The notes under the pieces are model-generated. The model worked only from the letters and a program-made list of their open reading frames with translations, had not been told where the DNA came from and ran no database searches. Both the position numbers and the translations under genes were made by a program. Below are positions 1 to 29,200 of a DNA stretch of 34,847 nucleotides, in pieces. Origin of the DNA: Candidatus Kaiserbacteria bacterium (GTDB lineage: Bacteria > Patescibacteriota > Minisyncoccia > Phycocordibacterales > UBA918); assembly GCA_043771035.1 (NCBI GenBank), contig JAYVHQ010000020.1:1-34847 (forward strand). Direction: 5' to 3'. Positions within the stretch are counted from its first letter, which is position 1. Each line of letters starts with the position of its first letter.

Positions 1-89
1 AGGTGGTCAGCTGTTTTATACTCTTGGTCCCAAAAAGTAGTACCATGAGTTTTCTTTTTCTGTTTACGGATGAAGGGTCTTTTTGCCAC
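1..89 (-). CDS. 5' part of a gene running off the left edge (possibly a class I SAM-dependent methyltransferase)
   Basis: GTG at 89 opens an uninterrupted frame MAKRPFIRKQKKKTHGTTFWDQEYKTADH to the edge, divergent from the DsbA-like gene. The product is guessed only from the FWDxEY start. Confidence 0.4.
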   Translation of the reverse strand, partial: MAKRPFIRKQKKKTHGTTFWDQEYKTADH

Positions 90-169
90 TGGTTTTCTAT
101 TGAAACTATATTAGAGCATAAAATAATCAATTTCGCAAGGTGTATAGGGTTAAATCGAGCCGTATTCTT

Positions 170-178
170 TGGTATAAT
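170..178 (+). promoter_or_regulatory. extended -10 promoter (TGGTATAAT), probable leaderless or very short leader transcript
   Basis: TGn-TATAAT ends 8 nt before ATG 187; no Shine-Dalgarno between. Confidence 0.6.
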
Positions 179-186
179 ACCCGCAT

Positions 187-912
187 ATGAAAAATCCATG
201 GGTAATAATTGGGGTGTTGATGGTGGTTTTGATTGGTGGTTCAGTCTGGTATTCAAGCTCAGTAGCTGAGAAATATGATGAAGGCGTCGTGGTGAAAGCT
301 CATATCAAAGGTGGCGTCGACGCTGCTGTTACCCTCACTGAATACAGCGATTTTCAGTGTCCAGCTTGTGGTGCTGCCCAACCGATTGTTAATGAAATTT
401 TAGCAGAGTACGGTGATCAAATAAAATTTGAATACAAACACTATCCACTCGTGCAAATCCACCCCTTTGCTGAACCAGCCGCTAGGGCAGCTGAGGCTGC
501 TGGACAACAAGATAAGTTTTTTGAGTTTGCTGATATGTTGTTTGCGAAACAGTCAGAATGGACAAAATCTACCAACCCGAGCGGCTTGTTTACTAAGTAC
601 GCGACAGAACTCGGCCTCGACGCCGACTTGTTTTCTCAGCACCAAAAATCAAAATTGCTTTCAGGTAATGTAAAAGCCAACATGCAAGAAGCTCGTGGTT
701 TAGGACTAACAGGCACCCCGTCTTTTTATCTCAACGGCAAAAAAATGGAAATGACTTCGTTTGATGACTTCAAATCCCAAATAGCCGCTGCTATAAATCC
801 GTCAGTTGATTTTAGTCTGCCGGGTGAGACACTTAAGATTATTCCAGTTGCAGGGGGAGCTAGTACAACTGTGGAGGCATCTACAACTCCAGTTGTACAG
901 TTTGGGATTTAG
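187..912 (+). CDS. DsbA-family thioredoxin-fold protein (membrane anchored)
   Basis: N-terminal TM; EYSDFQCPAC CxxC motif; KHYPL, AAEAA and GTPSFYLNG (cis-Pro loop). Confidence 0.9.
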   Translation: MKNPWVIIGVLMVVLIGGSVWYSSSVAEKYDEGVVVKAHIKGGVDAAVTLTEYSDFQCPACGAAQPIVNEILAEYGDQIKFEYKHYPLVQIHPFAEPAARAAEAAGQQDKFFEFADMLFAKQSEWTKSTNPSGLFTKYATELGLDADLFSQHQKSKLLSGNVKANMQEARGLGLTGTPSFYLNGKKMEMTSFDDFKSQIAAAINPSVDFSLPGETLKIIPVAGGASTTVEASTTPVVQFGI

Positions 913-918
913 ATTTAT

Positions 919-2241
919 ATGTCGATTGAGAAACTGTCTAATCAGGAACAAGTACTTGATACAGAGTGGTATGATCGTTTTCAAGAATTATCGGTAGAAG
1001 CATTTTCGATGCTTGATGGAGATGCGAGTGTCCGCTCGGCTGAAAAAGAAAAATTCTTACACAGTGAAACAGGAAACCCAAGCCTAGGGTATCCTAAACT
1101 AGAAAACGTCGACTTCCTTTCTCAAGAAAATGAGCTCCTGCAACTCAAGGCAGAAGTGTTACAGAACGAAAGTAATGAAACAGTGAAAGAAATTTATCGT
1201 ACAAAAATTAATGAAACTATAGCTGAGTTGCGTATGTTGCAAGCGGCTCGCGACGGTAAGGATGCACATTTCACTAGATATTCTTCCTTCGTCTATGGTT
1301 ACCCCACCAGGGAGAACACTACACTCATGTCTGAGATTATTCAGGAAAAAGTAGCTCGGGGGAAAACGGATGAAAAAAAGGCAGCGGCTACAAATATTCG
1401 CCCGATTTTAGAAACGTTAGTTCCTCATATTCCTGAACGTAAAGATCCGTTAGTATTGGCTGAAAAACTAGATCAGCGGGTTGAGTCAGTGGAAGAAGTG
1501 GTGCTGGCTTTTGAAGCAGCTCTGCAAGAAGTCGGAGCAATTGATGGTTGGAGTGTTGTAGCCAATGTGGGTTCGGGAATCACAAATTTCCGGGTATCAC
1601 AAAAAGAAAAATCGGTATACGTCCCCGCAGACAAGGTTGTTGGTATGCAGAGACAAAATATTCAGGCTTTCATTCAACATGAAGTATTTGGACATGTTAA
1701 GCGTCGCGTAAATGGCGAGAACTCCATTCTGAAATTACTAGCTACTGGACTGGATAGAGTTGAAAAAGGCGAAGAGGGAGTAGCGACAGTAAATGAGCAG
1801 TTAGTTACCGGGGCTGACACTTTTTCTCACCCGGAACGCTATTTTGCGATAGCGTTAGCTCGGGGAGATGTTGATGGTATAAAGCGGGACTTCAGGCAAA
1901 CTTTTGATGTTCTTAAAGAGTATTACATTACGGTCCTGCAGGGAAAAAAGACTGGTCTAACTCTAAACGAGCGGGCCTCTGACTGGGCCTGGGGTCTGTG
2001 TGTTAGGGCTTTTCGCGGTACAACCGGTAACACTCCCGGTGCGGTTTTTACAAAAGACTTAAATTATTTTGTTGGAAACAAAGAGACCTGGGCATTAATT
2101 AATACTGATGAAAGTGTGACTGAGTATTTTACTGTCGGTAAATTTGATGCCTACAACGAACGTCATGTTGGCTGGATGTTTGCTTTAGGTATCACTGATG
2201 AAAAATTAGCCAATGTATTACAAGAGACAAAATCTATTTAA
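919..2241 (+). CDS. DUF1704 / MATCAP-like HExxxH metallo-carboxypeptidase
   Basis: HEVFGH, downstream EEGVA, CVRAFRG, FTKDLNYFVG and GKF motifs. Confidence 0.8.
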   Translation: MSIEKLSNQEQVLDTEWYDRFQELSVEAFSMLDGDASVRSAEKEKFLHSETGNPSLGYPKLENVDFLSQENELLQLKAEVLQNESNETVKEIYRTKINETIAELRMLQAARDGKDAHFTRYSSFVYGYPTRENTTLMSEIIQEKVARGKTDEKKAAATNIRPILETLVPHIPERKDPLVLAEKLDQRVESVEEVVLAFEAALQEVGAIDGWSVVANVGSGITNFRVSQKEKSVYVPADKVVGMQRQNIQAFIQHEVFGHVKRRVNGENSILKLLATGLDRVEKGEEGVATVNEQLVTGADTFSHPERYFAIALARGDVDGIKRDFRQTFDVLKEYYITVLQGKKTGLTLNERASDWAWGLCVRAFRGTTGNTPGAVFTKDLNYFVGNKETWALINTDESVTEYFTVGKFDAYNERHVGWMFALGITDEKLANVLQETKSI

Positions 2242-3214
2242 AATATGCCTCGAGTATTTTTGTGGCTACGAGAAATGGCGTTTGCCTATCATTATAGTAT
2301 TGCGTGATATAACACAGATTGGGTTTACTATTGAGTTCTATGATCATAATATCAGAAGGGTTTTCAAAACTCCCTTTAATAAAGACATCAATCCCAACAC
2401 TGTCGATACCTAATTCAGAGCAGAGCTGCGTAACCCAGAGGTTAATTTTGACCGGAAAATTTTTAGTGATATAAAATGCTGGATCACTTTTTTTAGTGAT
2501 GTGAGTTTGGAACTGTTTTCCTTTTTTTAAAATAGAGTTGAGAGTGAGTTTTTGCGTGCGACACTCTTCTGCGATTACAAAATCGTCTTTGTACTTAGCT
2601 ATTTTAATGAGCTCAGCAAGTGTTTTTATACCGTCACCAGTTACCGTAGGGAACTTTTTGCGGTGTATAAACATTATTTTCCTATCCACCACAGTAATAC
2701 GATACTCATCTTTGTTTACAAATGGTTGCGCTAAAAAGCTCTCGTCTTTGTTGTAATAATAATTAATCTGACTGAGGGTATCTTTTTTTGTGTAACAGAG
2801 AACAACACCGCTGCCGTCACTGCCACTAGTAGGCTTGATGAGGATAGGGAGCGGTTGTTGTAATATTTGTGTCTTAAGAGCCGTCTGGGTAATGCTTTGT
2901 TTACTGGTAAAAGATATTGTTTTAATGCTTGAAAATTTTGTCTGTTCCAGTACCGCGGTCGTAATTAGTTTGTTATCCATTAAAGCCAGTTGCCACCGTG
3001 ATACCTGAGGGAAATATGTCTTAGCCGAAATATAACAACGTTTGTTTTTATGCTCGACATAAAAACCGAAAAGACTTAAATTTCTTTTTCCATTCACTTC
3101 AACATCAGTCAACTTATAGCCGAGACCTTTGGCAGCGGCATAGAGAAGTGACGCATTGGACCGATATGGTCGAGCTGTAGGAGTGGCCGGTAATGTAGGG
3201 ACAGTTTTTTTCAC
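2234..3214 (-). CDS. ATP-grasp ligase (cyanophycin synthetase/GshF-like, single domain)
   Basis: DNKLIT, LPILIKPTSGSDGSGV, EYRITVV, VTGDGIKTLAELI, GIDVF, IIELNSKP. Confidence 0.85.
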   Translation of the reverse strand: MKKTVPTLPATPTARPYRSNASLLYAAAKGLGYKLTDVEVNGKRNLSLFGFYVEHKNKRCYISAKTYFPQVSRWQLALMDNKLITTAVLEQTKFSSIKTISFTSKQSITQTALKTQILQQPLPILIKPTSGSDGSGVVLCYTKKDTLSQINYYYNKDESFLAQPFVNKDEYRITVVDRKIMFIHRKKFPTVTGDGIKTLAELIKIAKYKDDFVIAEECRTQKLTLNSILKKGKQFQTHITKKSDPAFYITKNFPVKINLWVTQLCSELGIDSVGIDVFIKGSFENPSDIMIIELNSKPNLCYITQYYNDRQTPFLVATKILEAYFK

Positions 3215-3261
3215 GTGATTATAAATATGATTGAAGGGTAGTTTACTATTTACTGCAAAGT

Positions 3262-4242
3262 TTAAAGCTTAAAAAAACTCTCCATAATAGCCTTCCATAT
3301 TTTATAGGATTTATCTTTATGACCTTTTGCGTATATGCCTGATAAAGCTGGGTTCGAGTTAATTTCGATGATGAGATAATTTTTAGGATCGTTCCATTCA
3401 CCTTTGGTAAAAATATCCACCCCAAACACGCCCAGTCCGGTTGTTTTGTAAAGTCGGTTAGCCCAGATGTGGACATTTTTTGGAACAGTCTCACGGTATT
3501 CGGTAATTTTAGCCCCGAGACTAATATTAGCAGTTTCTTGCATAAACAACTGGTGTTCTGAAGCTAGTACAGAAGATATTGTCTTACGCTCTTTTTTGAG
3601 CAAGCTTTGGAGGTATTCTTGGTCGGGCTTAAAATTTTGTTCAGCAAGCAGTTCTTCAATAGTATGAATGCCAGTACCCGTGATGGTAACGCGTTGTTTG
3701 CGGTACATAAACTGGACTTTTCCCATGACTACAAAAATTCTGTATTCTGGCCTCACGGTGAATTTTTCAATTAAAAATGATACGACGTTATCTTTTTTTA
3801 GATTGGCGATGTGTCTTTTGAGGCCCGCTCTATTAAAAATAATTCTAGCATTAGCTCCCCGTGAACCGGTATTAGGTTTTACAAAAACAGGGTAGTTAAT
3901 TTCACCAGCATATTTATACGAAGCAGCTACCGTATCTTTGGCTTTGATTTCTATACCAGTAAAACCTGGATTGGTGATATGAAATATTTTTCCCCTAATT
4001 ACTCTAAAGCCAAATTTCTTTAAAAACCTTTTAGTAACGGACTTGTCATCAGCGAGATGCTCTGCGAACTTTGGGTTAACAGGGTACATGCCATATTTTG
4101 TTTTTGAGCGAGAAATGAAATATTTTTCACCGTCAGTTACGTAGATTGCTTCCGAGTAGCCTTTATCAACTAAGCCAAAAGAATAGCCGTACTTTTTGGC
4201 GGCGCGTTTTAGTATTTGCAGGTTTGGGATTTTAGTACTCAT
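3262..4242 (-). CDS. ATP-grasp ligase (cyanophycin synthetase/GshF-like, single domain), paralog
   Basis: DDKSVTK, YPVFVKPNTGSRG, EYRIFVV, TGTGIHTIEELL, TANISLGA, GVDIF, IIEINSNP. Confidence 0.85.
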   Translation of the reverse strand: MSTKIPNLQILKRAAKKYGYSFGLVDKGYSEAIYVTDGEKYFISRSKTKYGMYPVNPKFAEHLADDKSVTKRFLKKFGFRVIRGKIFHITNPGFTGIEIKAKDTVAASYKYAGEINYPVFVKPNTGSRGANARIIFNRAGLKRHIANLKKDNVVSFLIEKFTVRPEYRIFVVMGKVQFMYRKQRVTITGTGIHTIEELLAEQNFKPDQEYLQSLLKKERKTISSVLASEHQLFMQETANISLGAKITEYRETVPKNVHIWANRLYKTTGLGVFGVDIFTKGEWNDPKNYLIIEINSNPALSGIYAKGHKDKSYKIWKAIMESFFKL

Positions 4243-4289
4243 AATTTACAGAATTTGTTGTTGCGATTTGAATAATTTACTGTATAAAT

Positions 4290-5582
4290 ATGTGCGTCAT
4301 GTCAGTAAGAGATAACTATATTAAAGACGTATCAACTGATGCTCGGTGGTTCTTGGCGTTAAAAGCTATCCATCGACCCCTACTCCTGCATTCTTTGGCC
4401 CCAGATGCGTATGCTTCTAGTTTAGAAAAGGCTAAAGTATTTTCCGAAGTGGGTTATAACCCTGTTTTTACATACCCACATCTTAATTTAGATACGGTAG
4501 TAGCCGCGCAGGCTTCTTTGATACAATTGCGCCTGCAAGTATGTCAGGAAGAATCAAATAAGTCAATAGCAACCGTGTATAGTGAGAAACTGGACGAGCT
4601 TATTTTAGAGCAAGAGTTGCTCGTCGCAGCTGCGCAAAGTGACGGGTTAGCATTTGCTGAAGCAAATAGTAGATTGTACAAATTGCTTGACGCAACCTAT
4701 GTGCAGGAATTACTAGCGCTCATTCAAAACAAGACAGATTTTTTCAATGGCAAAATGAATGTTTCGGATTTACTTAAAACAAAAGAAGTATTACCCAAAG
4801 CACTCCCCGTATCTGATAATTTGTTTAAAATTGCTCAAAAAATTGTTTATGGTCCAGATATTGTCGTTGGTACAACCGAAGTTTTTACGAGTGAGTTAAT
4901 TGTGGCGAGATGGAATGAAAGTCTAAAGGAGACAATGCCTGACTGGAAAGTAGCGATTGATACTCAAGTTACTTCTATGTTGGTTGTGCACAAAACTAGA
5001 ACAGTTAAAATCCCTCCACATTTAAAAATGAATGCTAAACGTATGCGCAAATTATTTGTTCATGAAATCGGTACTCATGTCTATCGTCGTGAGCAGGGTA
5101 AAAAAAATAAACTCCAACTGGCCAGCATTGGTCTGGCAGGGAATCAAGTATTTGAGGAAGGTCTCGCTATTGTGCGCGCGCAATTAGTGAGCCGTACATT
5201 TCACCAGTTTGGTGGTCTGGATAAATACCTCACTCTTGCTATTGCTATGGGGAATCTTGACGGTGTGCCAAAAGATTTTAATCAAACGTTTAGTCTAGTT
5301 CGAGACTATTTTTTAGATAGGCTAAATCGTAAAAGAAGTAGTGTAAACAACCTATCGATTGCAGAGTCAAGAGCTTGGAACTGTACGTTTAGAATTTTTC
5401 GCGGTGGCAACCCGTCAATTCCGGGATGTTGTTTACTCAAAGATAAAATTTATCATGAAGGTAATCGAATCGTATGGCAGATGATAGCTACGCATCCTGA
5501 ATATTTTAAGACGGTAATGCAGGGTAAGTACAATCCCCAAAGTTCCTTACAGCGAAAACTGGTTCAAGAAAATGCTCAGTAG
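4290..5582 (+). CDS. DUF1704 / MATCAP-like HExxxH metallo-carboxypeptidase, paralog
   Basis: HEIGTH, FEEGLA, RIFRG, KDKIYHEG, GKY; the start may be ATG 4299. Confidence 0.85.
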   Translation: MCVMSVRDNYIKDVSTDARWFLALKAIHRPLLLHSLAPDAYASSLEKAKVFSEVGYNPVFTYPHLNLDTVVAAQASLIQLRLQVCQEESNKSIATVYSEKLDELILEQELLVAAAQSDGLAFAEANSRLYKLLDATYVQELLALIQNKTDFFNGKMNVSDLLKTKEVLPKALPVSDNLFKIAQKIVYGPDIVVGTTEVFTSELIVARWNESLKETMPDWKVAIDTQVTSMLVVHKTRTVKIPPHLKMNAKRMRKLFVHEIGTHVYRREQGKKNKLQLASIGLAGNQVFEEGLAIVRAQLVSRTFHQFGGLDKYLTLAIAMGNLDGVPKDFNQTFSLVRDYFLDRLNRKRSSVNNLSIAESRAWNCTFRIFRGGNPSIPGCCLLKDKIYHEGNRIVWQMIATHPEYFKTVMQGKYNPQSSLQRKLVQENAQ

Positions 5583-5631
5583 TACTTTTCTACAAAAGGG
5601 GATACACCTCTAGGTAAAAGCTGTTTTATTT

Positions 5632-5640
5632 TGGTATGAT
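5632..5640 (+). promoter_or_regulatory. extended -10 (TGGTATGAT), probable leaderless transcript
   Basis: 6 nt before ATG 5647. Confidence 0.55.
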
Positions 5641-5646
5641 GACTGT

Positions 5647-6429
5647 ATGATTCGAACACGGAATTTTTTGTTGTTTATTCTCATCATGGCTTTCCTGGTT
5701 GGGGGTATTTTGCTGACCTTGTGGTTTTCAGCTGATACTACCGGTCGGGGGAGTTATTCGGATATGATTTTTGGAGGAGCACAGACAGCTACTATGACAG
5801 CTGAGGTTGTAACGCCTGAGGATAAGCGGGAAAGCAGGCTGGCTGCTTTACGGAAAAAACTAGCAGGTTTTACTGATGTGGCATTAGCGCCGAGCTCAAA
5901 TGAAGTTGAGCCAACCGTAGACGTGACAGATATAGCTACAACGACTCAGCCTGCTGTAACTTTGGGTACAAAGGTGCAACTATGCTCAAACTATAGAGCA
6001 GCCTCGGTCCCCGCGCTCACGGGTGATTTGGTGTACGCAGAGAGTAGCGGACAACGTACGTTCTTTGTGACTGAAACAGTCCTCCCCGAAGCAACTTCTA
6101 CCCTGCCGATAGTGGCACAAACAGTTGTTTTTACCTTGCCTCTGCGGACAGCTGGTTTAGGGGTGACTGATTGTATTGGAACAGATATTATCGCTGTCAC
6201 TCCAGTAGGTGCCCCAATTAGAAATTCTGAAGTGGCAAAATATAGCGGTAGTGGTGAAAATACTTTGATTGGCTACACGATAGACGGTCTGCAGCTCTTT
6301 GGTACGACTTCGAGCATTGATACCGATGCTTGTGGGGGAGCGATGGTTGGTGGCGTTTATCGTTATTATCTCTCACCCGAGCGGAATACGATTGTGAATT
6401 GTTTTGTGGCGATACCTGTCGCGCTCTAA
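5647..6429 (+). CDS. membrane-anchored protein with a C-terminal YHYH-like domain
   Basis: N-terminal TM; LIGYTIDGLQLFG...DACGG...GVYRYY resembles the YHYH family C-terminus. Confidence 0.55.
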   Translation: MIRTRNFLLFILIMAFLVGGILLTLWFSADTTGRGSYSDMIFGGAQTATMTAEVVTPEDKRESRLAALRKKLAGFTDVALAPSSNEVEPTVDVTDIATTTQPAVTLGTKVQLCSNYRAASVPALTGDLVYAESSGQRTFFVTETVLPEATSTLPIVAQTVVFTLPLRTAGLGVTDCIGTDIIAVTPVGAPIRNSEVAKYSGSGENTLIGYTIDGLQLFGTTSSIDTDACGGAMVGGVYRYYLSPERNTIVNCFVAIPVAL

Positions 6430-6445
6430 CGATAGCTAATGTATC

Positions 6446-7177
6446 ATGCGCACCCTCATTATTGATATCGAAACGGTGGGTGAGGCTTGGAACGATTTAG
6501 ATGATACAACACAGGGAGTACTGGCACGTTGGATTGAACGCTCAGCCCGCAATCCAGAGGGAAAAGAGTTACAGCTAAAAGATCTGCGCGGGAGTTTAGG
6601 CTTCTCCCCACTAACAGGGAGTATTGTGTCTATTGGACTTTATGACCTAGAACGAGCGCAAGGAGCTGTCTACTATATTGGAGTCGATACTGAAGGAGAC
6701 GAAGAAGTAGGGGATTTTGTTTTAAAACAACGGAGTGAAGCGGCGATGCTTCGTGAATTTTGGGAAGGAGCCCTCGAGTACAACACATTCGTGACATTTA
6801 ATGGCCGGGCGTTTGACGTGCCGTTTATTATGCACCGGAGCGTGGCTCATGGTATCAAACCAACGCGCGAACTCATGAAGTATCGCTATCTAAGTCATCA
6901 GTCAGCCCCTTATCATATAGATTTACAAGACGAGTTAACTTGGTACGGCGCCATGAGTAGGAGACCATCACTCCATTTGTTTTGCCGAGCGTATGGGATT
7001 ATAAGTCCAAAAAGCGATGGAGTAGATGGTAATGATGTAGCAGAATTATTTTCCTCAGGAAAATTTCGCGATATCGCGCTCTATAATTCCCGCGACGTCG
7101 TCGCGACCAAAAAGTTGTATGAGTTGTGGCTTAAAAATTTAGCTCCAGCAAGTTTTTTAAATACGCTTGATTTTTAA
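6446..7177 (+). CDS. DnaQ/PolB-like 3'-5' exonuclease (DEDDy)
   Basis: ExoI DIET, ExoII TFNGRAFD, ExoIII YNSRDV. Confidence 0.85.
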   Translation: MRTLIIDIETVGEAWNDLDDTTQGVLARWIERSARNPEGKELQLKDLRGSLGFSPLTGSIVSIGLYDLERAQGAVYYIGVDTEGDEEVGDFVLKQRSEAAMLREFWEGALEYNTFVTFNGRAFDVPFIMHRSVAHGIKPTRELMKYRYLSHQSAPYHIDLQDELTWYGAMSRRPSLHLFCRAYGIISPKSDGVDGNDVAELFSSGKFRDIALYNSRDVVATKKLYELWLKNLAPASFLNTLDF

Positions 7178-7223
7178 GTAAAAATGTAGTCTAATAACTA
7201 TAGAAACATTGTAGGAGATTTCA

Positions 7224-7628
7224 ATGGGAGTTTGGTGGGAAGATGTCGATGTACCTGTTCCAAAACAGGTGGTGCGATTTGCTGGTGATCCGTCAGCGAT
7301 TTCAAAACGATGGCCTGTGTTGTGGCGCTTTGGTCAAGATTGGCATTGCTTGCAAGTCTCTGGTGACTACGAATCCGGCTACCGTCTTTATTTTGCGACC
7401 GGTCGGCATCAGATGTCGCATAAGAGTCTTATCTCGGCCAGATTTGTTATGGTTCGCGAAGGTCCAGAACCAGTTGTGTTTTGGGCAGAAGATGAGCATG
7501 GTGAGCAAATCAATTTGATTAAAACTAGGCGGATGTTGCCGGCTCACCGTTTCAGACCAGAAAGGTCTTGGCATCAAGCCCCAAGTATGGACTATTTGCG
7601 AGCTATTGGGGAAGTTGTAAAGGTCTAA
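7224..7628 (+). CDS. hypothetical protein
   Basis: 134-aa ORF with AGGAG upstream, followed by a terminator; no recognised motif. Confidence 0.6.
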   Translation: MGVWWEDVDVPVPKQVVRFAGDPSAISKRWPVLWRFGQDWHCLQVSGDYESGYRLYFATGRHQMSHKSLISARFVMVREGPEPVVFWAEDEHGEQINLIKTRRMLPAHRFRPERSWHQAPSMDYLRAIGEVVKV

Positions 7629-21048: not shown

Positions 21049-22791
21049 TTATTTAAAAAAGGGCCAAAGCTTCTCCTCACTCATGTTCCAGTCACTTACG
21101 TTCATAAAGCGTTCCTGAGGTCGGCTGATCTGCTCCATCGGCGTTATCTTTATAGTACTGTCATGGACGTAGACGAGCTGTGGGACGTAGAGGAAGGCGG
21201 CCGGGGTCTCGCGGCTAAAGATTTGTAAGGCGTCTTTCGTCGCAGTGATTTGTATTTCGGTGGAAGTGGCTACCCGAGCGCGGTCGAGTAAACGGTCGAC
21301 TTCAATATTTGCGTACTGCGAAATATTTAATCCAGGATCTTCTCGTTGCGATGAGTGCCAAAACGGATAGAGATCAACTGCTCGATTCATGTCGAGACCA
21401 AATAATAGCCCTTCAAAATCTCGTGGACGAATGACTGCTTGCAATAAATCACTTTGTTCAAATTGTTCTACCTGCACTTCTACTCCTAGTTCACGCCAGG
21501 CGCGGGCAATAAATTCCGTCGTTGCTTCAAATGAGGGTGTGTTGGCTGTTTTAAGAACTATAGAAAGTTTTTTAATTTCACCATCAATCCGTTTTTCCCA
21601 ACCACCGGTATTGTTCTTGATCCAGCCAGACCGTACGAGAATGGTCTCGGCACTTTGTTTCGCTGAACTAGTTCCTGCAGTTACTGTTTGACTCATTGAT
21701 TCTACCGCAGGGTGGTTGCTTGGTACAGGGTACTTTATGGGGACACCAAAACCAGACAAAGCCTCATCTACTAATAGGTCACGATCAATCGCGGTGGTGA
21801 GCGCTAAACGGACAGCGGTATCACGCAGGGCTGGTGACCGATTTTGATTAAAAAATATCGCAAAGACCCGCGGGAGGGGTTCAGTCATGATGCTGTAGGT
21901 ATTGCTGTCTTTGAGGGCGATAACATCAGCAACTGCTAGCTGAGCCGTGCTGGTTATTTCTTTATTGGCAAAGGCGCTGCCTAAAGCCTCTTCGTTTTGG
22001 TAAAAATGAACTTCAACAGTACCGATAATAACCGGCTTATTATTTGCGTATTTTTTTAACTCGTAGGTTGAAATAAGACCAGATTCATCTTTGCTGAAAC
22101 TGTCTATCATAAAAGGTCCAGAACCTATCGGTTCCGTATTTTTAATACTAAACGGCACTTGTTCTATCGGTAGATTGCTCCAAATATGCTTTGGCAAAAT
22201 ACCCAGGGTAAAGTTTTCTATAAAAGGAGTATATGATTTGGTCAGTAGAATATTAAGCTCATACTCCCCAATTTCTTCGACGGTGACATCAGACCAGTTA
22301 CCTCGCAGCGGGCTCTTGAGTTCGGCATTTTGCACGAGGCCAATCGTAAAAGCGACATCACGAGCCGTGACTGGCGTGTCGTCATGGAAACGTAGATTAT
22401 TTTTAAGAATAACATTATACGTTTTTCCGTCGTCTGAAACGGTAATACTATCGGCTAAATCCGGCACCAGATCGCCTTGGGGGTTAATTTTCATTAGCCC
22501 ACTATATATAAGAGCAGTCATGTCTTGGTCTGCTCGGGTCACTGCCAGAACCGGGTTGACAAAGCGGGGCGTGCCGATGACGCCTTCCTTGAGCGTACCT
22601 CCCGCCACCGGAGAGTTAGAACTATTGGCACTGCTCCACATAACACCAGCTGTGACGAGGGATCCTATAAGCGTAAAAAACAAAATACGCAAAATCAGCC
22701 GGTCGCTCGGGAGCTTGTTTTCTATAGTACCGATAAGTGAGCCAATAAGACTCATTCGTTTGGCAGGTGAGTGCGAGAATCGCAATTTCAT
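21049..22791 (-). CDS. ABC transporter substrate-binding protein, family 5 (peptide/nickel type)
   Basis: GGTLKEG, PDLA, FHD..VTARDVAFT, PIGSGPF, WHSSQ. Confidence 0.9.
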   Translation of the reverse strand: MKLRFSHSPAKRMSLIGSLIGTIENKLPSDRLILRILFFTLIGSLVTAGVMWSSANSSNSPVAGGTLKEGVIGTPRFVNPVLAVTRADQDMTALIYSGLMKINPQGDLVPDLADSITVSDDGKTYNVILKNNLRFHDDTPVTARDVAFTIGLVQNAELKSPLRGNWSDVTVEEIGEYELNILLTKSYTPFIENFTLGILPKHIWSNLPIEQVPFSIKNTEPIGSGPFMIDSFSKDESGLISTYELKKYANNKPVIIGTVEVHFYQNEEALGSAFANKEITSTAQLAVADVIALKDSNTYSIMTEPLPRVFAIFFNQNRSPALRDTAVRLALTTAIDRDLLVDEALSGFGVPIKYPVPSNHPAVESMSQTVTAGTSSAKQSAETILVRSGWIKNNTGGWEKRIDGEIKKLSIVLKTANTPSFEATTEFIARAWRELGVEVQVEQFEQSDLLQAVIRPRDFEGLLFGLDMNRAVDLYPFWHSSQREDPGLNISQYANIEVDRLLDRARVATSTEIQITATKDALQIFSRETPAAFLYVPQLVYVHDSTIKITPMEQISRPQERFMNVSDWNMSEEKLWPFFK

Positions 22792-23390: not shown

Positions 23391-23547
23391 GACAGGAGCA
23401 AAGCGGAAGGCTGTGGCAATCCACGTCGCCTCACGTCAACCATAGACAAAATCAAAATCCCATCGTATAGCCTTGCAATTTACTGTAACTGGTATAGGAT
23501 ACTCGTATTAGTGAGTGGTCGGGGTTATTACATTTAATTTTATACAT

Positions 23548-25320
23548 ATGTTTACTAAAAGTCTGAAGCGTGGAGTGACTTTATTGGCCGTTTTTTCAAT
23601 CATTACGAGTTTAGTGCCAGTGACTAACGTTGCAGCCCAAGAAGCCCCACGTTGTACAGTTGTCAGTAATGCCTTTGTTCAAGAAGGTGGCGCAGATAGT
23701 TCCATAGTTGAACGAAACCCAGTTTGGTTTGATATTACTGGGGCTAGTTGGATTTGGGGAGATGCTGACAATAATGTCTCAACCACGACCCAAACTTTCT
23801 CAAAGCGCTTTATTGTAAACGGAACATCTACTGCAGCCCTACTGACCGTAGCGGCAGACAATGGTTATTCTGTTAAAGTTAATGGTTCATCTGCTGGAGA
23901 TGATAAATCAACAATTGAAGACAATTTTCGTTCAGCTACTGAGGTAAATATCCTTTCAAAGCTCGTAATGAATGCTGAAAACTTAATTGAAATCACCGTT
24001 ACAAATTTTGATGTAACTGGTATCAATCCTGCTGGATTGGCTTTTAAGATTGCTATGGAAGGCAATACTTGTGATCCACTTCCACCTCCAGACCTCTGTA
24101 GCAATATTACAGGTCTTCAGAATCCAGTTCCAAGAGGTTACGAATTAGTCAGTGGTAAATGTGTCCCAACGACTATCACGGTGGGTACTATGGACAAGTC
24201 ATGTATTACTAGTAATGAAAACTTGTTAACTAACGGTTCATTTGAGGTCCCCGCTATTATTCCAAGTTACTCAGTTGTAAGCAGTGTCACTGGTTGGATT
24301 AGTTCAGTGTTAACAAATGGATTTGAGATTTGGCGTGGACAAGGTGGTCCAGCTTCAGCCGGTGACCAACACCTCGAACTTGATGTCAATATACCAACAA
24401 CCATCACACAATCGGTAGCAACAGAAATTGGTAATCAATATAAGGTAACACTCGACTTTTCACCACGAAGTGGCGGAAATGCGGCTGATAACAAGGTTGA
24501 AGTAGCGGTGGGTGGTGTTCTCGGTTCTGTCAGTGCTGACGGTTCAGTGTATCCAGCTAACGTTTGGACAACTCGCAATTTCCTCTTTACAGCAGCAACT
24601 ACTTCTTCACTTCTTGAATTACGCGATATGGGGAATAGTAATGGTCTAGGAACTCTAATTGACAACGTTAAAGTATGTTTGGTAACAGACAATACTCCAG
24701 ATGGAACAATCAAGGGTTTTAAATTTAATGATTCTAATGCTGACGGCGTTTTTACAAACGACGAGAGTAAGTTAGCTAATTGGGATATCGTACTTACCGA
24801 TAGTGAAGGTAACGAAAAGTTTGCTACTACCAATAGTGTTGGTGAATACATTTTTGATGTAAAGTCAGGTAGCTACACAGTGACAGAAACTCAGCAAAAA
24901 GGTTGGGAGCAAACAGCAACCCTCGTTTCAACTGGATCAACTGTCGTTGGTAATGCGTGTAAAATTACTGTGACCAAAGATGGTGGCGAAATCGGAGTCG
25001 GTGAAGGAGGAGGTTTCGAAGGTTCATTTGGTCCTCAAACATACACTTGTGACTTTGGCAATCGTCAAATTGATGAAGAAGAACCACGTCGTAGTGGCGG
25101 TGGTGGCGGAACTCGTGTCGGAGATCGCAACCCACGAACTCCAACTGGTGAAGTGCTCGGTGCATCAACCTCAACTCCAACCGGAGTAGTGCTTGGGGAT
25201 GCAACTTCTACTATGCCAGTAGGTGCTCCTAATACAGGAGCTGGTGGAGCGGCTCCACTAACGGTATCACTGCCAACTCTCGTTGCAATCTTGTCTACAA
25301 CGACTCGCAAGAGTAAATAA
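23548..25320 (+). CDS. secreted multidomain surface protein (lectin/CBM-like + DUF642-like + SdrD-B-like), probable class F sortase substrate
   Basis: Signal peptide; WIWGD/AADN/NPAGL domain; NLLTNGSFE..ELD..DNV domain; GFKFND..DG..LANW domain; C-terminal PVGAPNTGAGG + hydrophobic stretch + RKSK. Confidence 0.8.
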   Translation: MFTKSLKRGVTLLAVFSIITSLVPVTNVAAQEAPRCTVVSNAFVQEGGADSSIVERNPVWFDITGASWIWGDADNNVSTTTQTFSKRFIVNGTSTAALLTVAADNGYSVKVNGSSAGDDKSTIEDNFRSATEVNILSKLVMNAENLIEITVTNFDVTGINPAGLAFKIAMEGNTCDPLPPPDLCSNITGLQNPVPRGYELVSGKCVPTTITVGTMDKSCITSNENLLTNGSFEVPAIIPSYSVVSSVTGWISSVLTNGFEIWRGQGGPASAGDQHLELDVNIPTTITQSVATEIGNQYKVTLDFSPRSGGNAADNKVEVAVGGVLGSVSADGSVYPANVWTTRNFLFTAATTSSLLELRDMGNSNGLGTLIDNVKVCLVTDNTPDGTIKGFKFNDSNADGVFTNDESKLANWDIVLTDSEGNEKFATTNSVGEYIFDVKSGSYTVTETQQKGWEQTATLVSTGSTVVGNACKITVTKDGGEIGVGEGGGFEGSFGPQTYTCDFGNRQIDEEEPRRSGGGGGTRVGDRNPRTPTGEVLGASTSTPTGVVLGDATSTMPVGAPNTGAGGAAPLTVSLPTLVAILSTTTRKSK

Positions 25321-26228: not shown

Positions 26229-29200
26229 ATGACATTATTTACCATGCAGAACCAGATTGCCGTTAAAGCACTAGCTCTTTTAACAATGTTGATGATGGTC
26301 TTCAGTCTGCTACCGTCTTCTGTGTTTGCGCAGTCAGAAGGAGAGACTCCTGTTGAACAACAAGTTCCTGATTCAGTACCAACTAATGATGAAATAGTTG
26401 GCGGCGATGAAGAAGGTATCAGTGGAGATGAAAATGTTGAATCATTTAGTCGACAGCCGAAACCCCCAAAGGAAGAGGAAGATGACAATGACGAGTCTAA
26501 AGTGACAATTTGTCACGCAACAGAAAGTGAAACAAATCCTTATACTCAAAATGAGGTATCTAAATGGTCAATTTTGAAACCAATAAATGGACACAATGGA
26601 CATGATGACGATATCATTCCACCTTTTGAACGTATACTTTTTCCTAACTATACAGGTAAGAACTGGGATGATGAAGGACAAGCTATTTGGAATAATGATT
26701 GTGCAATTCCTGAACCTGAAATCCCCGCTGTACCTGTATGTGATCTTGGTAGTGAAACTGTAGCTGATACAACTTTTGATACATTCAGCCTTGGTAATGT
26801 AAATGGACAAAATGGTTGGAGTTCAACTGGTTCATTTGACCAAGAAGTGGTTACTAACACGTATGGATATACAACATTTGGTTGTAAATCACTCCGTATT
26901 TCAAATGCTGTGACTAGCAGTAGTTTTGGCGACCAAACCTTTGCAGCTTCACTTACAAATTCTGTTGGTGAAACTATTGCTACGAACGGAGTATTTCCAG
27001 TAGGTACTCGCTTCAATCGTTACGAAGCCCAGTTTGATATTGCGTCAACTAAGCAGACACAACAATCAGGTCTTCGGATGACAGTTTCTCCTGACCGTGG
27101 CGATGGTTCACGAATGAGTTTCTTGGCTTTTCAAGATACTGCTTCAGGAATTGATATTGTATTTAACGAAGTACTAGGAACTGGTCCGGTTTCTTTCGTG
27201 CCAACTACTATCGCTACTATTAATCGAAATCCACACACTATTAAATTAGTGGTAAATACTAACGAAGGAGCAAGTAACGACGTTGTTGAAGTGTACGTGG
27301 ATGGTGTTCTTAAACATACCGGAACATCATGGGAAAACTACTACCGTTTCGATGCTGAAGCATCAGCAGAACAGACACCGCGTCTTATAAAGACCCTTTT
27401 GTTCCGATCTTCAAATACAGCTGCACCAGCAACTGACGGAGAAGGATTTCTCTTTGACAATATGTCACTCAAAGCATTAAACCAGCCAAAAGCCAAAGAA
27501 GTAACAGTCGTAGCAACAAAAATTGTTTGTACTGATGAGGCTGAGCTACCCAATTTTGGCGCTAGTGGACCAGCAATGACAGCGACCACAGCTAGTGACT
27601 GGGTGACAGCACATAAGAGTTGTTCATTTGCCAAAGACTGGCAGTTCCAATACGCTGACCAAACTGGTATTGATACCGCTGGTAACTTTACTGGTACAGC
27701 TGCTGGTTACACAACTTTTACCAATTCTACTGACGTAAATGGCGTCACAACTCAAGTTATTCCACTTGGAAAAGGGGTGTCAGAGCTCCATCTTCGAGAA
27801 GTATTACAGGCAGGCTACATTCCATTTAGTAAAGATGGCGCTAATAATGTCAGTGCCGAATTCTACTGTGCTGATGACGTACTAAACTATGATAACTGGG
27901 ACTTTATCCGTAATCCAGAATCAGGCGAAACATATTACTGTGTTGCTTGGAACGTAAAGAAGCCACAAGAAACAGTCAAGGTACATATTTACAAATACCT
28001 ACAAGTTGGTACTACTTCAGCTCAAGTACCGAATGACTCGACTGCTCCAAGTTTCCCAATGATTTCTTCATGGTCAGCCACTAATATTGGTACTGGCTCA
28101 GGATCATATGTGTTAGGAAACAATGAAGGCGGAACTGTACTAGAATATGCGGCTGATACTTCAGCCATGTCAGTTCCAGCAGACTACACAACGAGCGAAG
28201 TAACTGGTGGCGATAGTGTCGTGTTGCCAGCTGATGTAAAGTGTATCCTCGGTAAGTACCGATTAGTCGGCTACAAACAAGGTGACTCAATCGGCGCTGC
28301 CGAAAGTGCAACACTTACAGCAACTGCACCCGTGTACACCGACATTACAACAGACAAATACGTGATTGTAGTAAATGAAAAGTGTGGAGATAATCCAAAA
28401 CCAGTGTGTGAAATTGGACAAAACTTAATGTTAAACGGTAGTTTTGAAAACACTCCGGCAGTGACCGCTAACGGTGGACAATGGCAGATCTTTGCTGGAG
28501 GTATCCTCAACTGGCTTGCTACTCTATCAAGTGGTCTAGAAGTCTGGAATACCTTTAATGGTACAGGCAACGACGTTGCTTCAGATGGTCTACAAAATGT
28601 AGAGCTAGATGGTGATGATGCTACGAATATTGCACAAGATGTAGCGACAATTCCTGGTGCGACGTATGAACTTAAGTTCGACTACTCAGCTCGCGCAGCC
28701 ACTGCCCTCGCTGATAGTAAAATGGACGCAATGATTAACGGTGTGTCTGCCTTGACGGTCAATACTGACGGTAGTGCTGCTACTCAGAATATGTGGGAAC
28801 CAAAAACGGTAAGCTTTGTTGCTACGGGAACCTCAACTAAAATTAGTTTTGAGGACAAAGGTGCTGCTAATCTAGATGGTGGCTTTGGTCCACTGCTTGA
28901 TAACGTATCACTATGTCTTACTAAAGAACCAGTACCAGAGCCAGTGTGTACACTTACTATCAAGTCAGACGTGATGGACTATGTAGTAGAAAAGAACGCA
29001 ATGGCACAAGCCCTATCAACTATTAACGGAGCCTGGGTGACTGCGTTTGGTACATCTACAGCAGCGTGGATCTGGGGTGATAACCCAGTTGTGAATCCAA
29101 CAGTAGCTGAAACTCAGACATTCAAAAAAGGTTTTAACTGGACGGGGGGAGCTGTTACTAGTGCGACTCTAAAACTATCGTCTGATAATACTCACAAAGT

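Follow-up and report, generated by a model that had tools for sequence, protein, structure and literature searches.

MATCAP was recognised as a tubulin tail carboxypeptidase only in 2022-2023. Our literature searches returned nothing on bacterial MATCAP relatives (DUF1704, KIAA0895/QEGLA/PF08014/TIGR02421, and MATCAP in prokaryotes) and no paper pairing DUF1704 with ATP-grasp, an earlier mention being possible in Iyer et al. 2009 (Mol Biosyst); searches for ATPgrasp_ST/PF14397 or the NCBI product name also found nothing. Cassettes in which an ATP-grasp ligase and a peptidase would add and remove a tag are already in print for other peptidase folds (PMC3495828). The protease RimB removes the glutamates added by RimK and also stimulates that enzyme, the two being known in a hybrid form as well (PMC11957791); in CphA1, a G-type ligase is found together with a cryptic zinc peptidase site (PMC9262961); GshF extends a short non-ribosomal peptide by Gly at its C-terminal carboxylate (PMC9427784); and genetic data link the three rlo genes of the RloABC cassette to a single process (PMC12239564). 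Here, we analyse four genes between positions 919 and 5,582 of a 34,847-nucleotide stretch of Candidatus Kaiserbacteria DNA (contig JAYVHQ010000020.1; the whole stretch is referred to as the window), in which two predicted MATCAP-family peptidases, pep1 and pep2, flank two predicted ATP-grasp ligases, lig1 and lig2.

Four genes of two enzyme families

The window is contig C20 of an 829-kb assembly (86 contigs; estimated completeness 77%), and close homologues of its ligase are labelled Candidatus Pacebacteria, Kaiserbacteria, Parcubacteria or 'Patescibacteria group' in their source names. The four genes, with their predicted products, are:

919-2241, plus strand: pep1, predicted MATCAP/DUF1704-family zinc peptidase (gluzincin; HEVFGH ... 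EEGVA), 440 aa, PF08014 74.7 bits
2234-3214, minus strand: lig1, predicted stand-alone ATP-grasp amino-acid ligase of the cyanophycin-synthetase G-domain/GshF type, 326 aa
3262-4242, minus strand: lig2, predicted stand-alone ATP-grasp ligase of the lig1 type, 326 aa
4290-5582, plus strand: pep2, predicted MATCAP/DUF1704-family zinc peptidase (HEIGTH ... EEGLA), 430 aa, PF08014 74.9 bits

All four open reading frames (ORFs) are intact in the ORF list, which also bears out the layout described in the first-pass annotation of this DNA, i.e. a plus-strand peptidase, two minus-strand ligases and a plus-strand peptidase, with an 8-bp overlap on one side and a 47-bp divergent gap on the other. The convergent genes pep1 and lig1 share positions 2234-2241; lig2 precedes lig1 on the minus strand at a distance of 47 bp, the two probably forming an operon; and the divergent genes lig2 and pep2 are separated by 47 bp (4243-4289), or by 56 bp if pep2 begins at the ATG at 4299. 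The start codon of pep2 is uncertain between 4290 and 4299, and a database copy (P0060; 427 aa, 100% identical) begins at the second of these ATGs, three codons past the first. A scan of positions 1-7600 gave 14 promoter-like and 6 terminator-like sites, no excess over shuffled sequences (15.6 and 6.5, respectively).

The motifs that had been listed for the peptidases are all present, at columns that are invariant or at least 90% conserved: HEVFGH, EEGVA, RAFRG, KDLNY and GK in pep1, and HEIGTH, EEGLA, RIFRG, KDKIY and GK in pep2. His-Glu-x3-His, the Glu-Gly of EEG, the Phe and Gly of (F)RG, the Tyr and the Lys of GK were invariant in alignments of 14 and of 48 homologues (14/14 and 48/48); the Arg of (F)RG was conserved in at least 90% of the 48 rows, and the Gly of GK was invariant in the 14 rows and conserved in at least 90% of the 48. 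The residues of pep1 that were invariant in the 14-row alignment include H254, E255, H259, R262, E286, G287, Y383 and K408. Both proteins exceeded the cut-off of the Pfam MATCAP profile PF08014 (27 bits) but stayed below that of the NCBIfam QEGLA equivalog TIGR02421 (83.6 bits for pep1 and 63 bits for pep2 versus a cut-off of 338.65), and the QEGLA motif is not kept, reading GEEGVA in pep1 and FEEGLA in pep2.

When a profile built from the 48 peptidase homologues was compared with PDB structures, human MATCAP was the sole match. The fold comparison covers the AlphaFold model of pep2, which had a mean predicted local distance difference test score (pLDDT) of 94.9: human MATCAP was the only Foldseek match at E<=0.001, and VIA-align superposed the model on human MATCAP (7z5g/7z6s) with a Z score of 18.5 and a root-mean-square deviation of 3.2-3.8 A over 261-268 residues, followed by DUF885, a family of unknown function (Z 13.2), and M32 carboxypeptidases (Z ~9-10). 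In TMCP1/2, mutants in the Glu residues of the HExxxH and EEG zinc site are inactive (PMC10499314). In total, the PF08014 scores and the fold match of pep2 uphold the earlier DUF1704/MATCAP assignment, and pep1 and pep2 are predicted to be MATCAP-family members in which the HExxxH zinc motif and the EEG third ligand are present.

Both ligases passed the RimK-like ATP-grasp profile PF08443 narrowly (26.8 and 27.3 bits for lig1 and lig2, respectively; cut-off 21). They did not reach the RimK subfamily TIGR00768 (41.2 and 46.5 bits versus a cut-off of 143.4), and the TTL profile PF03133 of Pfam gave no match at E<=0.01. Against TIGR02068 (CphA1), lig1 scored 55.7 and lig2 92.5 bits, the cut-off being 850 and their 326 residues corresponding to the G domain only; against the GshF family NF002688, they scored 57.1 and 71.5 bits (cut-off 425). 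A 51-row profile of the ligase family aligned to the G domain of CphA1 over near full length (254.5 bits, E 1.1e-74), followed by GshF (231 bits), CphA2 (~204-212 bits) and RimK (~64 bits). Similarly, the AlphaFold model of lig2 (pLDDT 93.0) had GshF, with 3ln6 as the best match, and CphA1 as its top Foldseek matches, RimK also being matched. We found 59 homologues of lig2, mostly 50-92% identical. A search for longer fused relatives of lig2 returned only GshF-like and CphA-like proteins at 24-25% identity and no fusion of this ligase subtype with MATCAP, and a predicted complex of lig2 and pep2 scored 0.27 against a mark of 0.32, which speaks neither for nor against a complex.

Six residues, K67, K122, R168, D276, E293 and N295, were invariant in all 51 rows of the ligase alignment, lig1 included. 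We mapped residues of TeCphA1 (PMC9427784) onto lig1 and lig2 through the profile alignment and the family alignment. The equivalents of K261, R309, D431, E450 and N452, which concern ATP, Mg and the acyl-phosphate, were invariant in 51/51 rows; in CphA1, R309 grips the C-terminal backbone carboxylate and the acyl-phosphate (PMC9427784). At the positions of E215, H267, R323, N394 and R458, lig2 has H, R, K, N and S and lig1 has A, D, K, K and C, so that the residues for the cyanophycin primer and substrate Asp are retained only at N394 (in lig2) and, as a basic residue, at R323. Moreover, the two ligases have different residues (lig1 versus lig2) at the equivalents of H267 (D versus R), N394 (K versus N) and R458 (C versus S), where CphA1 holds the incoming amino acid, which makes two specificities plausible. 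Altogether, the profiles and the lig2 model sustain the earlier assignment to ATP-grasp ligases of the CphA/GshF kind: lig1 and lig2 are predicted to be stand-alone ATP-grasp enzymes closest to the CphA G domain and GshF, and not to RimK or TTL; homology gives good support to a chemistry in which the C-terminal carboxylate of a peptide is activated and an amino acid is added, and the predicted product is not cyanophycin.

Linkage of the two families within and beyond the phylum

The first-pass annotation saw in the four genes a paired system and named lack of co-occurrence of DUF1704 and ATP-grasp in other genomes as evidence against it; the two families do co-occur elsewhere. Of the 401 genomes sampled in the phylum, 76 had PF08014. 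All 86 matched loci were fetched, and two profiles were run on their 4136 ORFs, one for the peptidase and one for ATP-grasp, the latter grown from lig1 and lig2 over four rounds (53, 124, 150 and 152 matches). Among the 91 MATCAP-like genes, 22 were fused to ATP-grasp in a single ORF (~770-890 aa), while an ATP-grasp gene lay within 150 bp of 35, within 1.5 kb of a further seven and within 5 kb of two; 16 had no ATP-grasp gene, and nine more had none but lay no more than 1.5 kb from a contig end. Thus, 64 of the 91 genes were either fused (22) or within 1.5 kb of an ATP-grasp gene (42), and a hand tally placed this linked arrangement in 24 of the 31 family-level groups with the peptidase. ATP-grasp genes reached a density of 28.9 per 100 kb within 1.5 kb of the peptidase and 1.0 per 100 kb at a distance of 4.5-6 kb.

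The 152 matches of the ATP-grasp profile formed a single BLAST-linked set with 11 Pfam-verified members inside it, and 17 of 18 profile-positive ligases checked against Pfam were ATP-grasp, the exception being a 510-residue protein (L138) with no Pfam match and 173.6 bits against the ligase profile. The fusions of the phylum join an ATPgrasp_ST/TIGR02291 ligase to MATCAP (for instance 234.8 and 204.9 bits, respectively, in L034), and 7TM_transglut membrane-protein genes often adjoin them; a locus search with a single fusion protein found only three close Peribacteria/Peregrinibacteria loci. In one family, the peptidase and four different ATP-grasps make up a conserved set of five genes.

Outside the phylum, the peptidase query matched 128 plasmid records, six of which were examined. 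Four of the six (Shinella, Mesorhizobium, Aminobacter and a record labelled Roseateles) carried an operon of an FGase-fold amidohydrolase, a MATCAP-family peptidase and a GshB-like ATP-grasp ligase; a Vibrio record had an FGase-MATCAP fusion without a ligase and a Pseudoalteromonas record the peptidase alone. The functional coupling of the two families is supported by their fusion or adjacency in most of the sampled genomes that have the peptidase in the phylum, and by their shared operon in Proteobacteria. We conclude that the coupling of MATCAP-family peptidases to ATP-grasp peptide ligases is real and ancient.

The assembly from which the window comes contains two MATCAP and four ATP-grasp-profile matches in all, and both MATCAP genes and the two strong ATP-grasp genes fall within one 4.7-kb stretch. 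PF08014 was found in 13 of 61 genomes, i.e. that of the window and 60 relatives. With ligases counted at >=100 bits, 7 of the 12 relatives that have the peptidase also have the ligase type, compared with 12 of the 48 that lack it; these genomes are kin and not independent, and no statistical claim is made. The divergent pep2-lig2 pair is kept in two relatives, G022 and G021, where two more lig1-like ligases follow; in a third, G007, the peptidase is located at a contig end.

A FastTree phylogeny of 95 peptidase domains, limited to stretches of 280 residues or more, separated a short clade of 55 rows, with 21 fused, 27 linked and 7 not linked to a ligase, from a long clade of 40 rows that holds pep1 and pep2; pep1 belongs to long-form clade A.

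Several further arrangements were seen at these loci. Beside one long-clade MATCAP-like gene lies a 921-residue protein (L090:8295-11060, minus strand) made up of ATPgrasp_ST, a retropepsin-like Zn_protease (PF05618) and a second ATP-grasp. Proteins with DUF5939 and an adenylate/guanylate cyclase domain adjoin ligase-free long-clade genes at L116:5312-6859, L119:10108-11574 and L109:3-1184 (assigned by Pfam for L116 and L119 and grouped by BLAST for L109), and cyclase and peptidase may form a different partnership there. At L111:5324-7720 (genome G238), a 798-residue ORF has a weak MATCAP match in its C-terminal part (29.5 bits), its first ~520 residues matching neither profile. Finally, at L030:7276-8633 (genome G017), a MATCAP-like gene beside two ATP-grasp genes is broken up into two ORFs (240 and 228 aa) that overlap, which may represent a frameshift or a decaying copy.

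A variable slot and the likely acceptor of the proposed module

The four genes lie between three frame genes, which stand outside the enzyme module or downstream of it:

187-912, plus strand: DsbA-like thioredoxin-fold gene (Pfam), left frame of the slot, outside the enzyme module
5647-6429, plus strand: first gene of the right frame, membrane-anchored Cys-rich YHYH-like protein, 260 aa
6446-7177, plus strand: second gene of the right frame, PolB-exonuclease-like gene

The gap between the DsbA-like gene and the start of pep1 is 6 nt, and both right-frame genes are kept downstream of pep2 or of whichever gene replaces it. Six congeners without MATCAP (G019, G012, G033, G026, G032 and G027) have the frame genes of the window, with identities of 49-58% for the DsbA-like, 28-34% for the YHYH-like and 41-49% for the PolB-exonuclease-like protein, and of 45-73% for GH1. 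Their slot contains a lig1-like ligase (28-41% identical to lig1), an ATP-grasp_4 ligase of the L-amino-acid-ligase (LAL) type (428-453 aa, weakly BacD-like) and a third ligase, which is RimK-like in G012, G026 and G027, another ATP-grasp_4 in G019 and Mur-type in G032 and G033. The Mur-type ligase is closest to the M domain of CphA (TIGR02068 152.1 bits over positions 478-860; PDB 7wac E 1.9e-20). In G032 (locus L133), the order is DsbA-like gene, M-like ligase, lig1-like ligase on the opposite strand, LAL-type ligase, YHYH-like gene and exonuclease; the M-like ligase thus occupies the place of pep1 and the LAL-type ligase that of pep2, and the junctions are those of the window, with a 6-nt gap after the DsbA-like stop codon and an 8-bp overlap (ATTTAAA core) with the end of the ligase. 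We conclude that the slot between the DsbA-like and YHYH-like genes (187-7177, compared with L129-L134) is a cassette site. The genome of the window had no CphA-M-like or LAL-like gene that we could find. Over positions 2001-5000, the G+C content is 0.373-0.386, the lowest of the first 10 kb of the window, the adjacent kilobases having 0.42-0.48, and this fits an island with a different history.

The protein encoded at 5647-6429 has a single N-terminal membrane helix, four invariant cysteines and a DxCGG...YRYY motif, and its gene sits downstream of pep2 in 4/4 loci of the pep2 clade; a sister-species homologue scored 22.3 bits against Pfam YHYH, under the cut-off of 25. This protein is probably extracytoplasmic and outside the enzyme module. 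Elsewhere in the window, ~15 kb from the cluster, a family-5 solute-binding protein of the oligopeptide-binding type is encoded at 21049-22791 on the minus strand (SBP_bac_5, 185.6 bits), and two plus-strand genes encode probable surface proteins, one of 601 aa with DUF642 and an SdrD_B-like domain (23515-25320) and one of 1674 aa with DUF642 and a peptidoglycan-binding domain (26229-31253).

In our estimate, there is an even chance that the four genes form a ligase/carboxypeptidase module whose target is the free carboxylate at the C-terminus of a peptide in the cytoplasm, this peptide being most likely a non-ribosomal oligo- or poly-amino acid. A ligase of this module would use ATP to phosphorylate the C-terminal alpha-carboxylate of the acceptor and then join one amino acid to it; lig1 and lig2 would probably add different residues, or act in successive steps, because they differ at the incoming-amino-acid positions of CphA1. 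The peptidases pep1 and pep2 would be MATCAP-type zinc carboxypeptidases that trim residues off the free C-terminus, and building and trimming would jointly set the length and end-composition of the product. The module would be part of a variable peptide-ligase island, its acceptor chemistry being cyanophycin-like without the product being cyanophycin. We infer the enzyme activities, the sharing of one target molecule by ligases and peptidases and the nature of that molecule from the genes, their families, fold, conservation and linkage, and the coupling between the two families is most simply explained by opposite chemistry on one C-terminus.

As for the acceptor, a non-ribosomal oligo- or poly-amino acid appears more likely than a protein tail because the nearest characterised relatives of the ligases are CphA, CphA2 and GshF, because clusters contain up to five ligases, because sister species fill the two peptidase positions with further peptide ligases, of the LAL and Mur types, and because in Proteobacteria the peptidase is found with a GshB-like ligase and an amidohydrolase of the small-molecule type. 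Cyanophycin synthesis or breakdown proper is rejected: N and M domains are lacking, the cyanophycin-specific residues are not kept and no S51 cyanophycinase scored above the cut-off in the five genomes searched.

Several observations weigh against a dedicated module of ligation and trimming. The ligases that replace the peptidases in the sister species may mean that the peptidase is optional cargo of a variable island and not a partner. Among the 60 relatives, 7 have both families, 5 the peptidase only, 12 the ligase only and 36 neither, and the peptidase and ligase genes are non-adjacent in 4 of the 7 that have both. In the long clade, to which the peptidases of the window belong, a ligase lies within 1.5 kb in 18 of 40 rows and is absent in 22, some of them at contig ends, and L029, the sister of pep1, has no ligase nearby; pep1 and lig1, being convergent, are not co-transcribed. 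Neither lig1 nor lig2 keeps the equivalents of E215, H267 and R458, and the product cannot be named. Moreover, to our knowledge, no bacterial MATCAP homologue has a known activity, product or substrate. Finally, those MATCAP-family members that have been characterised act on protein tails (PMC10499314).

The last point favours the proposal that the ligases tag the C-terminus of a specific protein and that the MATCAP-like enzymes untag it, in a bacterial cycle equivalent to that of TTL/MATCAP and to RimK/RimB on S6, here with two orthogonal tags. Every MATCAP-family enzyme characterised so far trims protein tails and polyglutamate (PMC10499314), and the bacterial pair RimK/RimB, which also occurs fused, has been shown by experiment to add and remove residues (PMC11957791). 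Cassettes of an ATP-grasp ligase and a peptidase were predicted long ago to attach and remove tags (PMC3495828); in the phylum, fused ATPgrasp_ST-MATCAP proteins are often found beside 7TM_transglut membrane proteins; and the genome of the window encodes a few proteins with acidic C-terminal tails. Two of the latter, predicted at C54:2989-4017 on the minus strand (with a long alternating Glu/Asp run) and at C33:5166-6017 on the plus strand, are conceivable tail substrates. Nevertheless, we consider tagging of a protein tail rather unlikely here, and we likewise think it unlikely that the bacterial MATCAP homologues and their ATP-grasp partners in general are true writer/eraser pairs for protein C-terminal tails, with two orthogonal tags in this case. 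No candidate substrate is linked to the cluster; the ligases are far nearer to CphA/GshF than to RimK (254.5 versus ~64 bits) and have no Pfam TTL match at E<=0.01; and the LAL-type and Mur-type ligases in the peptidase slots of the sister species are typical of free-peptide synthesis. The downstream YHYH-like protein was rejected as a substrate, being membrane-anchored and extracytoplasmic, with only ~5 cytoplasmic residues and a C-terminus that by topology lies outside the cell. A 7TM tail was rejected as well: the cluster has no 7TM partner, and 7TM_transglut (PF14402) was not found in the genome of the window (G000) or in the relatives G021, G022, G007 and G030, a weak piece of evidence as the control genomes were blank too. 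A RimK/S6 system was rejected too, on its low RimK scores (TIGR00768; ~64 versus 254.5 bits). The add/remove cycle with two specificities that the first-pass annotation had proposed is partly supported: the two families are coupled, and the residue differences between lig1 and lig2 make two specificities plausible, but a tag on a protein tail is not supported as stated, the nearest characterised relatives of the ligases making non-ribosomal peptides.

The peptidases could instead be helpers, trimming imported or pre-existing peptides or supplying an amino acid, and thereby feeding or stimulating the ligases rather than reversing them. There are precedents in the stimulation of RimK poly-glutamate synthesis by RimB (PMC11957791) and in the zinc peptidase site of the CphA1 N domain, which makes primers for the G domain (PMC9262961); the LAL-type ligases in the peptidase slots of the sisters would make a starting dipeptide de novo, which fits two alternative sources of acceptor, and the small genome (829 kb at 77% completeness) and the oligopeptide-type binding protein in the window are also in keeping with such a role. 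A carboxypeptidase, unlike the endopeptidases RimB and CphA1 N domain, creates no new chain ends, and we regard the helper role as distinctly unlikely, although from sequence alone it cannot be told apart from a module that builds and trims. Finally, peptidases and ligases might be unrelated neighbours, carried independently in a recombination-prone island and acting on different substrates, given that the slot varies within the genus, that positions 2001-5000 have a lower G+C content than most of the window and that several genomes hold one family without the other. This appears highly improbable in view of the 22 of 91 peptidase genes that are fused and the 42 more that are adjacent, over 24 of 31 family-level groups, of the independent proteobacterial operon with a different ATP-grasp subfamily and of the very few ATP-grasp genes in the genome of the window.

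Systematic fusion or adjacency to ATP-dependent peptide ligases gives the large 'unknown' DUF1704/QEGLA family a concrete, testable function and suggests that the pairing of a ligase with a MATCAP-type trimmer is ancient. Should the pairs prove to act on protein tails, the add-and-trim logic of tubulin tyrosination and glutamylation would exist in bacteria, in genes already linked or fused, before its use on eukaryotic microtubules. If the four genes build and trim a free peptide, as we favour, the island would represent a rare case of dedicated, ATP-costly peptide chemistry in the tiny genomes of Patescibacteria, varying between sister species; its product could be a storage, surface or signalling peptide, and its identification would bring to light a new non-ribosomal peptide pathway or a new type of protein modification in bacteria.

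Comparison with known systems

The eukaryotic pair of MATCAP/TMCP1-2 (KIAA0895L, KIAA0895) and TTL/TTLL shares its peptidase family and fold with the window (PF08014; Z 18.5 to 7z6s/7z5g), including the HExxxH and EEG zinc site (PMC10499314), at ~20% identity between the window peptidases and human MATCAP. The logic is parallel, with an ATP-grasp enzyme adding residues to a C-terminus and a carboxypeptidase taking them off, but the ligases of the window are outside the TTL family (no PF03133), and no tubulin-like or other protein substrate is evident.

On the ligase side, the G domain of CphA1 and CphA2 aligns with lig1 and lig2 over their whole length, and the ATP, Mg and acyl-phosphate residues are kept. 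CphA1 joins this ligase to a zinc peptidase site and a Mur-type ligase (PMC9262961), and the sister species have a separate M-domain-like gene in the slot; the window ligases, by contrast, are without N or M domains, do not keep the equivalents of E215, H267 and R458 and are not cyanophycin synthetases. The ATP-grasp module of GshF is the second-best match in sequence (231 bits) and the best in Foldseek (3ln6), but its glutamate-cysteine ligase domain has no counterpart in lig1 or lig2.

The operon of Proteobacteria, with its FGase, QEGLA (TIGR02421) and GshB-like proteins, also has a MATCAP-family peptidase beside an ATP-grasp ligase. It differs in that the ligase belongs to the PF02955 GSH-S_ATP subfamily, an FGase-fold amidohydrolase is added and the peptidase has ~620 aa and a PF08014 score of 312.6 bits, compared with ~75 in the window; the name 'flavohemoglobin expression-modulating' is annotation only. 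The RloABC cassette (ATPgrasp_ST ligase, 7TM inactive transglutaminase and retropepsin-like protease) and the fused ATPgrasp_ST-MATCAP form of CPR bacteria are variations on the same wider theme. The window cluster has no ATPgrasp_ST and no 7TM partner, both of which mark RloABC, and no retropepsin (PF05618), which marks the RloABC and RimABK types alike, and its peptidases are in a different, longer clade than those of the fused CPR form. Finally, RimK-RimB(-RimA) of Pseudomonas, the system of S6 polyglutamylation, is likewise a bacterial ATP-grasp ligase and peptidase that are encoded together and work in opposite directions on a C-terminal tail, and its fused RimB-RimK form resembles the ATP-grasp-MATCAP fusions of the phylum (PMC11957791).

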